Part shown: positions 1,265 through 1,348 of the stretch, one piece after another
Position numbering within the stretch: the stretch's first letter is position 1
How the letters are laid out: each line of letters begins with the position of its first letter
Origin: an uncultured Candidatus Poseidoniales archaeon
Lineage (GTDB): Archaea; Thermoplasmatota; Poseidoniia; Poseidoniales; Thalassarchaeaceae
DNA: 30,790 bases
Direction of reading: 5' to 3'
NCBI GenBank assembly: GCA_963996605.1
Contig: CAXEIX010000001.1
Coordinates: 1-30,790 of the forward strand
Notes under the pieces: generated by a model
Told to the model about the DNA's origin: nothing
Databases searched by the model: none
Seen by the model: only the letters and a program-made list of their open reading frames with translations
Translations under genes and position numbers: made by a program

Positions 1265-1348
1265 TGACACTGGGGAGCGAGAGCTGAGAGGTCGCCCAGA
1301 GCGACGACCCAAGAACCTGATCTGGGTAATTCCAGCGGAGGGAGAGAA
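1265..1348 (+). ncRNA. TPP (thiamine pyrophosphate) riboswitch aptamer
   Basis: Core elements in canonical order: GGGG 1272-1275, GC-GAGA-GC hairpin, UGAGA 1285-1289, GUCGC/GCGAC stem 1291-1305, CCC 1308-1310, ACCUGAU 1315-1321, CUGG-GUAAUU-CCAG 1322-1335, CGGAGGGA 1336-1343. It lies directly before the ATG at 1349. P1 pairing is not obvious, so the ends are approximate. Confidence 0.92.

Follow-up and report, generated by a model that had tools for sequence, protein, structure and literature searches.

Does the short gap in front of a transporter gene of an uncultured marine archaeon hold a working TPP riboswitch, and which substrate and which mode of expression control would go with it? The window, by which we mean the whole analysed stretch of 30,790 nucleotides from a Candidatus Poseidoniales archaeon of the family Thalassarchaeaceae, encodes a 486-aa transporter of the sodium:solute symporter family on the plus strand (SSF, 1349-2809; Pfam PF00474, 78.5 bits). 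Between the stop codon of the preceding gene (1226-1228) and the ATG at 1349 lies a gap of 120 nt, in which the motifs of a TPP aptamer occur in the right order on the plus strand. They are GGGG (1272-1275), the J3/2 sequence CUGAGA (1284-1289), ACCC (1307-1310) and ACCUGAUCUGGGUAAUUCCAGCGGAGGGA (1315-1343). The Rfam model of the TPP riboswitch aptamer (RF00059) matches plus-strand positions 1261-1360 over its whole extent (model positions 1-105 of 105), with 50.4 bits and an E-value of 3.1e-9 in a permissive Infernal scan of 1150-1450 (301 nt), or 3.2e-9 per genome. This is the sole TPP-like match in the window's genome (1.32 Mb, 85% complete). The aptamer ends 5 nt before the ATG of the SSF transporter gene and thus sits in its leader.

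The score is 3.9 bits under the RF00059 gathering score of 54.3 and so does not reach the membership threshold. For this reason a default Rfam scan misses the riboswitch: at gathering scores, the whole window yields three tRNAs only and the TPP element is unlisted. The preliminary description of this DNA had named a sub-threshold RF00059 score as grounds for giving up the riboswitch. The score does fall below the threshold, but it is not a valid test here, as orthologues at the same locus reach 66.7 bits. Homology to accepted RF00059 members holds because such same-locus orthologues score 54.4-66.7 bits (66 of 151 genomes). The deficit stems from a missing P1 helix and a P3 hairpin of 3 bp, both typical of the lineage, and the sub-threshold score is a reflection of lineage features and not of decay.

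Using the transporter protein, we gathered 80 orthologous loci, which belong to Candidatus Poseidoniales, Thalassarchaeaceae, MGIIb or Marine Group II and so bear out the earlier assignment of the DNA to a probable Marine Group II archaeon. Pairing and covariation were counted on an alignment of 53 distinct orthologous copies of the element. Forty-four alignment columns are invariant in these 53 copies, and all 44 are intact in the window copy. The ligand-pocket motifs, CUGAGA and the ACCUGAUCUGGxUAAUxCCAGCG sequence of P4/P5, are invariant or nearly so and are present in the window at 1284-1289 and 1315-1337.

Two sensor arms on the plus strand make up the element. The pyrimidine-sensor arm (1271-1311) comprises P2 (1271-1274 with 1308-1311, 95% paired), a P3 hairpin of three pairs only (1276-1278 with 1283-1285, closed by a GAGA loop at 1279-1282), the CUGAGA motif and the P3a hairpin (1291-1295 with 1301-1305, 99% paired). 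The pyrophosphate-sensor arm (1316-1343) comprises P4 (1316-1318 with 1339-1341), which is invariant and 100% paired, P5 (1322-1325 with 1332-1335, 99.5% paired, with the loop GUAAUU at 1326-1331) and a conserved GA at 1342-1343. Compensatory changes occur in one pair of P2, in four of the five pairs of P3a and in two of the four pairs of P5; the closing pair of P2 is UA in 30 copies, AU in 8, UG in 2, and CG and GC in one each. Covariation as high as that observed is found in none of 500 shuffles and in no slid register. The match is far beyond chance because 44 columns are invariant in 53 distinct copies and the helices covary. Judged by homology and structure, we conclude that the window element is a genuine TPP riboswitch aptamer.

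One helix is absent. P1 is the usual switching helix of TPP riboswitches and closes the three-way junction. In the window, two of the five Rfam consensus P1 pairs form, and across the family the Rfam register is 44% paired, against 36-58% in slid controls. When all 4-bp helices that could join the 14 nt preceding P2 to the 17 nt following P4 were tried, whatever their register, the best had 57.5% of its cells paired, compared with 56.5% in permutations and 95-100% in the real helices. A P1 in another register was considered and rejected, and relatives of 66 bits show fortuitous partial P1 pairing only. The best-scoring relatives (62-67 bits) likewise have no true P1 and owe their extra bits to an improved P3 hairpin and P5 loop, the only parts in which higher-scoring relatives differ from the window copy; their core motifs are the same. 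P1 is typical of the TPP class but makes no ligand contact, and we therefore treat the P1-less element as a subtype and do not exclude it. The preliminary description had announced a complete TPP riboswitch, with all elements ordered in a 120-nt gap. The motifs, their order, the gap and the full-model RF00059 match stand, but completeness does not, as P1 is unformed.

The transporter behind the aptamer has close relatives that are named 'Na+/proline symporter' in databases. A proline-symporter reading, which these names and the neighbouring P5C dehydrogenase gene would suggest, was rejected, since the PutP/PanF equivalog models score far below cut-off (TIGR02121, 43.9 versus 515.5 bits; TIGR02119, 34.5 versus 328 bits) and homologues are riboswitch-linked. 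Distant homologues were collected in a profile-free search of 1.84 billion representatives, and one from Acidimicrobiia (39% identical) served as the probe for bacterial loci. RF00059 matches of 63.8-71.9 bits lie directly upstream in four of eight bacterial homologue loci (three from Actinomycetota and one from a cyanobacterium). The riboswitch-preceded homologues are 42% (actinobacterial, E-value 5e-86) and 33% (cyanobacterial, E-value 6e-56) identical to the window protein. Because bacterial homologues also stand behind TPP riboswitches, the transporter clade is linked to thiamine across domains. We propose that the protein is a thiamine importer of a ThiV-like, TPP-riboswitch-linked SSF clade, the likeness to ThiV lying in the SSF family and the riboswitch link.

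The gene content of the host bears on the substrate. ThiC, ThiD, ThiN and ThiM were not found in the window's 85%-complete genome. ThiE is represented by a sub-cut-off fragment of 19.7 bits only, ThiL reaches 40.7 bits against a cut-off of 184, and the 'Thi4' matches cover the dinucleotide-binding motif only. A thiamine pyrophosphokinase (TPK) is encoded by a 211-aa ORF (51 bits). A set of 151 genomes of the order (58 with a completeness of 90% or more) contains no ThiC and no ThiD above cut-off, and 147 of these genomes encode TPK; the absence of pathway genes is counted here on metagenome-assembled genomes (MAGs) and for known enzyme families. These counts uphold the thiamine auxotrophy or scavenging that had been suggested for this lineage. 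The organism probably imports thiamine itself, and thiamine is the most likely cargo of the importer: a cell without ThiD and a synthase could make no use of HMP, and for one with TPK thiamine would be enough.

The aptamer could be genuine and the imported substrate nevertheless be a thiamine precursor or vitamer, either HMP, as proposed for ThiV of SAR11, or a degradation product. ThiV is an SSF transporter behind a TPP riboswitch for which there is direct evidence of HMP uptake (PMC11452348), and the SSF clade of the window protein is riboswitch-linked in bacteria. Use of HMP, however, requires an HMP(-P) kinase and a thiamine-phosphate synthase, and the gene inventory of the window's genome (neither ThiD nor ThiN found, ThiE as the 19.7-bit fragment) and of the order (ThiD above cut-off in 0 of 151 genomes, and TPK, which acts on thiamine, in 147) argues against it. 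We thus regard import of a vitamer as unlikely, although it is the strongest competitor of thiamine import.

The neighbouring genes on the plus strand are partly conserved. The upstream gene (2-1228, its 5' end cut by the window) encodes an L-glutamate gamma-semialdehyde (P5C) dehydrogenase (TIGR01236, 604.9 bits; Pfam Aldedh), and its counterpart lies upstream on the same strand in 64 of 75 orthologous loci. It is a conserved neighbour outside the switch. The transporter is followed, 5 nt after its stop codon, by a PAP2-superfamily membrane phosphatase (2814-3587; Pfam PAP2_3, 33.8 bits), a homologue of which lies downstream on the same strand in 55 of 75 orthologous loci. This gene is probably co-transcribed with the transporter gene and is possibly part of the riboswitch regulon. 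Before uptake, its product could remove phosphate from TMP or TPP on the outside of the cell.

Further along, the window carries a phosphate-uptake cluster with oversized parts (3718-15803). In it, a PhoU domain is joined to a DNA-binding domain of the AbrB/MazE type (3718-4764), and there follow a 1163-aa protein with three PstS-type binding domains (4916-8407), two permease-domain proteins of 772 and 1284 aa with BPD_transp_1 at the C-terminal end only (8512-14681) and a 369-aa ABC ATPase (14694-15803). A 688-aa protein (16457-18523) with DUF7151, collagen triple-helix repeats and a choice-of-anchor I domain is probably a surface protein.

How could an aptamer without P1 control the transporter gene? 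The Shine-Dalgarno (SD) sequence GGAGG (1337-1341, plus strand) lies 7 nt before the ATG at 1349 and is invariant in 53 of 53 aligned copies; across relatives, 7-8 nt separate it from a conserved start codon. Its bases A1339, G1340 and G1341 form the 3' strand of P4 and pair with U1318, C1317 and C1316. P4 thereby sequesters only three of the five SD bases, which is a point against direct SD blocking. The 16S rRNA is not in the window's own MAG, and that of a family relative was used instead; in this single-contig, riboswitch-carrying genome it ends in ...GGAUCACCUCCU, and a CCUCC anti-SD is therefore available. GGAGG- or GAGG-type motifs precede four of 20 crudely called ORFs in the window, the transporter gene included. 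The start codon is 7 nt from the GGAGG and 5 nt from the last conserved aptamer base. With only 7 nt between SD and ATG, there is no space for a terminator or a separate sequestor hairpin, and direct burial of the SD is thus the most economical mechanism.

We infer from this arrangement, and at a probability of roughly 0.7, that the element is a functional TPP riboswitch in the archaeal (Thermoplasmatota) style, which accounts for practically all of the 5' leader of a thiamine importer gene and acts as a feedback valve on uptake. At high TPP, the ligand would clamp the two sensor arms (P2/P3/P3a and P4/P5) and lock the 3' strand of P4, and with it part of the GGAGG, inside the folded aptamer. 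The small ribosomal subunit could then not bind the buried SD, and the importer would not be made. At low TPP, the P4/P5 arm would be loose and the SD free, so that the importer, and probably the PAP2 phosphatase too, would be translated. A cell without thiamine synthesis would in this manner import thiamine, from which thiamine pyrophosphokinase would make TPP in one step. To judge from the SD/P4 overlap, TPP binding most likely blocks translation directly.

The promoter region bears on the extent of the RNA. TTCAACTA (1240-1247, plus strand), with BRE-like purines just upstream, is a candidate archaeal TATA box 32 nt before the GGGG. An A/T-rich box occurs 29-33 nt before the GGGG in 54 of 60 distinct relatives, and the sequence of the spacer varies; the window's three tRNA genes have similar boxes (TTCATCTA, CTTATG) 32-34 nt before their mature 5' ends. 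The box at 1240-1247 is thus a candidate promoter of a riboswitch-transporter transcript. On this TATA reading, transcription should begin near A1269, within the semi-conserved ACU before the GGGG, which would leave no 5' strand for P1. A minimal P1-less riboswitch could follow, in which the transcript begins about 3 nt before P2, the leader of about 80 nt consists of the two arms, the SD is a strand of P4 and ligand binding equals ribosome exclusion. We put forward this stricter version tentatively, at somewhat worse than even odds.

Another expression platform could operate in place of SD burial by P4. The RNA could start further upstream or be read through from the P5C dehydrogenase gene, and a pyrimidine-rich tract, CCUCCCCCGCUGCC (1249-1262, plus strand), could compete with P4/P5; alternatively, the switch could act on mRNA stability. 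The tract is complementary to 1332-1346 (the 3' strand of P5 and the SD), the pairing is seen in the MFE fold, and the duplex is strong in the window (-22.8 kcal/mol, z -3.3). Among 60 relatives, 10 have z < -1.64 where about three are expected, and the spacer is about 80% C/T at -23 to -14 before the GGGG across the family. Contigs from RNA libraries cross the predicted start (1048-1560, 1066-1309 and 1221-1410), but, being assembled contigs, they carry no information on RNA ends, and their source may be DNA; transcription continuing from the upstream gene, DNA carry-over or a different start could each account for them. The tract pairing is unconserved (mean z -0.5 over the 60 relatives). 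It would also hide the SD when no ligand is bound, and hence give no switch, and the spacing of box and aptamer is constant (29-33 nt), like that in the tRNA promoters. We consider a different platform improbable, a little more so than import of a vitamer. As a core element, the pairing of 1249-1262 with 1332-1346 was rejected for want of conservation, and the tract is a possible alternative pairing partner if transcribed. Tracts strongly complementary to the SD region also occur in a few relatives (loci L036, L043, L059, L066, L074 and L100).

The riboswitch is widespread in the family. At E <= 1e-3, RF00059 has matches in 91 of 151 family genomes, of which 66 exceed the Rfam cut-off; the matches span 11 of 13 genera and are nearly always single-copy. 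As about two thirds of the family copies pass the Rfam threshold, automatic annotation will flag many of them. The aptamer precedes 64 of the 79 orthologous transporter genes with enough upstream DNA, the window counted, and in 57 of the 59 loci that fit a strict motif, 11-12 nt lie between the end of the ...CCAGCG strand of P5 and the start codon. A survey of Poseidoniales genomes, which the preliminary description had called for, finds the riboswitch conserved across Thalassarchaeaceae: within the order it occurs in 43 of 74 genomes of the window's family, one of 74 of the sister family and neither of two of the third.

A ThiN-domain protein (ThiR-like, from ORFs of mostly 280-300 aa) has the complementary distribution, with five of 74 genomes in the window's family, 73 of 74 in the sister family and one of two in the third. 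None of the five ThiN-positive genomes of the window's family has the riboswitch, and no ThiN domain was found in the window's genome. Within the order, the riboswitch marks Thalassarchaeaceae, and the sister family has the ThiN-domain protein instead. The sole riboswitch-bearing genome of the sister family (G201) carries the element about 56 nt from a ThiN-domain gene on the same strand (C18:14570-15174), an RNA sensor and a protein sensor side by side. At another sister-family locus (L121:1132-3098), a 287-aa ThiN-domain gene overlaps the start of a gene for an SBP_bac_6 ABC-type solute-binding protein by 40 nt, an arrangement that suggests a ThiR-controlled ABC importer rather than an SSF transporter. 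Neither a ThiN gene nor a riboswitch was found directly upstream of the SSF orthologue of a Poseidoniaceae locus (L093). The 179-aa ORF in front of that orthologue (L093:833-1372) has a weak CYTH-domain match (19.7 bits, below cut-off). The CYTH family includes thiamine triphosphatases.

Some orthologues have no riboswitch. A quick tree built for 81 transporter orthologues shows the 15 riboswitch-less ones scattered, and well-supported branches force at least five changes. This scatter suggests that the riboswitch was repeatedly lost in the family, and since about 15 orthologues keep the transporter without it, regulation by the riboswitch is dispensable. In most riboswitch-less loci the upstream gene abuts or overlaps the transporter start. 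Nothing of the leader is left in L051, L052, L056, L075, L087, L091, L099 and L104 (also in L084, L096 and L102), and in such leaderless loci it is the P5C dehydrogenase gene that abuts or overlaps the start (for example, ...GATTGATGG). The gene overlap suggests translational coupling and a loss of B1 control in these loci. That the window copy itself is a decaying relic or a chance resemblance without a regulatory role, as its 50.4 bits against 54.3 and the several losses in the family could suggest, is very improbable, given its E-value of 3e-9, its 44 intact family-invariant columns, the covarying helices, the fixed position of the aptamer relative to the start codon, the same aptamer in relatives of the same clade (transporters 82-99% identical) and the confinement of the differences from higher-scoring relatives to the P3 hairpin and P5 loop, outside the core motifs.

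The closest known systems are in the same phylum. The TPP riboswitches of Thermoplasmatales (Thermoplasma, Ferroplasma and 'plasma' MAGs) precede genes for multi-transmembrane transporters and have been on record since the earliest comparative work (bioRxiv 10.1101/538918). They share with the window element the aptamer core GGGGAGC...GCUGAGAGG-hairpin-GACCC...ACCUGAUCYGGGUAAUxCCRGCGGAGGGA, a GGAGG in P4 with the start codon a few nt further on, and control of an importer. A layout of GCGGAGGGA followed by AUG or GUG is common to the window and to the Thermoplasmatales-type riboswitches before MFS transporters. The SD-in-aptamer layout thus looks like a general design of Thermoplasmatota. The Thermoplasmatales-type riboswitches precede MFS transporters, occur in two copies in all three sampled genomes, score 54-76 bits and have a longer P3 and, in most cases, a P1, whereas the window riboswitch is a single copy before an SSF transporter, with a 3-bp P3 and no P1 found anywhere in the family. 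Some Thermoplasmatales-type copies (L133 and L134) are likewise without a convincing P1. The second copy in one of these genomes (L135; G301:C1:760050-760147, minus strand) scores 54.2 bits, just below the cut-off, and is unlisted at the gathering threshold. We conclude from these comparisons of motif and gene context that the window riboswitch is closest to the Thermoplasmatales examples, but has another transporter family and no P1.

SAR11 offers a bacterial parallel. Its thiV TPP riboswitch and the ThiV sodium:solute symporter were reportedly described by Carini et al. in 2014. Both cases concern a planktonic marine B1 auxotroph in which one TPP riboswitch and an SSF importer are, or in the archaeon would be, the main vitamin route. 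SAR11 differs in being bacterial, in that ThiV is reported for HMP, and in its retention of ThiD and ThiE, whereas the window's genome, with ThiD and ThiN not found, ThiE as a sub-cut-off fragment and TPK present, points to thiamine.

The thiM riboswitch of Escherichia coli is a translational OFF switch with a TPP-dependent block of ribosome binding and a two-arm ligand clamp, and the mechanism proposed here would share both. The thiM element has P1 and a separate anti-SD/anti-anti-SD platform downstream of the aptamer, whereas the window riboswitch has no P1 and no separate platform, and its SD lies within P4 of the aptamer. ThiR (HTH-ThiN) is a protein repressor of archaeal thiamine genes. 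In the sister family it would carry out the same regulatory task as the window riboswitch, with a protein sensor in place of RNA; the ThiN protein has about 290 aa, and in the one examined locus (L121) its gene adjoins one for an ABC-type solute-binding protein and not an SSF transporter.

Archaeal riboswitches have been described as sporadic (PMC8281238, PMC8241225), and only a fluoride riboswitch, and no TPP riboswitch, has been experimentally verified in archaea within the searchable literature (PMC8241225). In a sample of 151 genomes of the phylum, matches are confined to three families; outside the window's family, they occur only in f22 (one genome) and f35 (three genomes). The statement that archaeal TPP riboswitches are rare and mainly known from Thermoplasmatales thus agrees with the sample as well as with the literature (bioRxiv 10.1101/538918; PMC8281238). 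The searchable literature, which leaves subscription-only papers outside, holds no report of a TPP riboswitch in MGII, Poseidoniales or Thalassarchaeaceae. The element is a TPP riboswitch of an ordinary kind, from a lineage for which that literature describes none, and it has a minimal architecture and a plain ecological significance. Its compact, P1-less, SD-in-aptamer design makes it a test case for archaeal riboswitch mechanism, and the minimal P1-less form, if true, would provide a clean natural system for archaeal translational riboswitches. The likely misannotation 'Na+/proline symporter', spread through databases, is also corrected.

Few planktonic archaea are as abundant as those of Marine Group II, and seawater contains little vitamin B1. 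The gene inventories indicate that the whole order is without thiamine synthesis and may live on the imported vitamin, which would make MGII a consumer in the marine B1 economy. They further indicate that MGIIb may meter uptake with an RNA sensor and that its sister family, MGIIa, uses a ThiN-domain protein. If true, this split between riboswitch and ThiN protein would show two abundant ocean lineages sensing a scarce vitamin differently.
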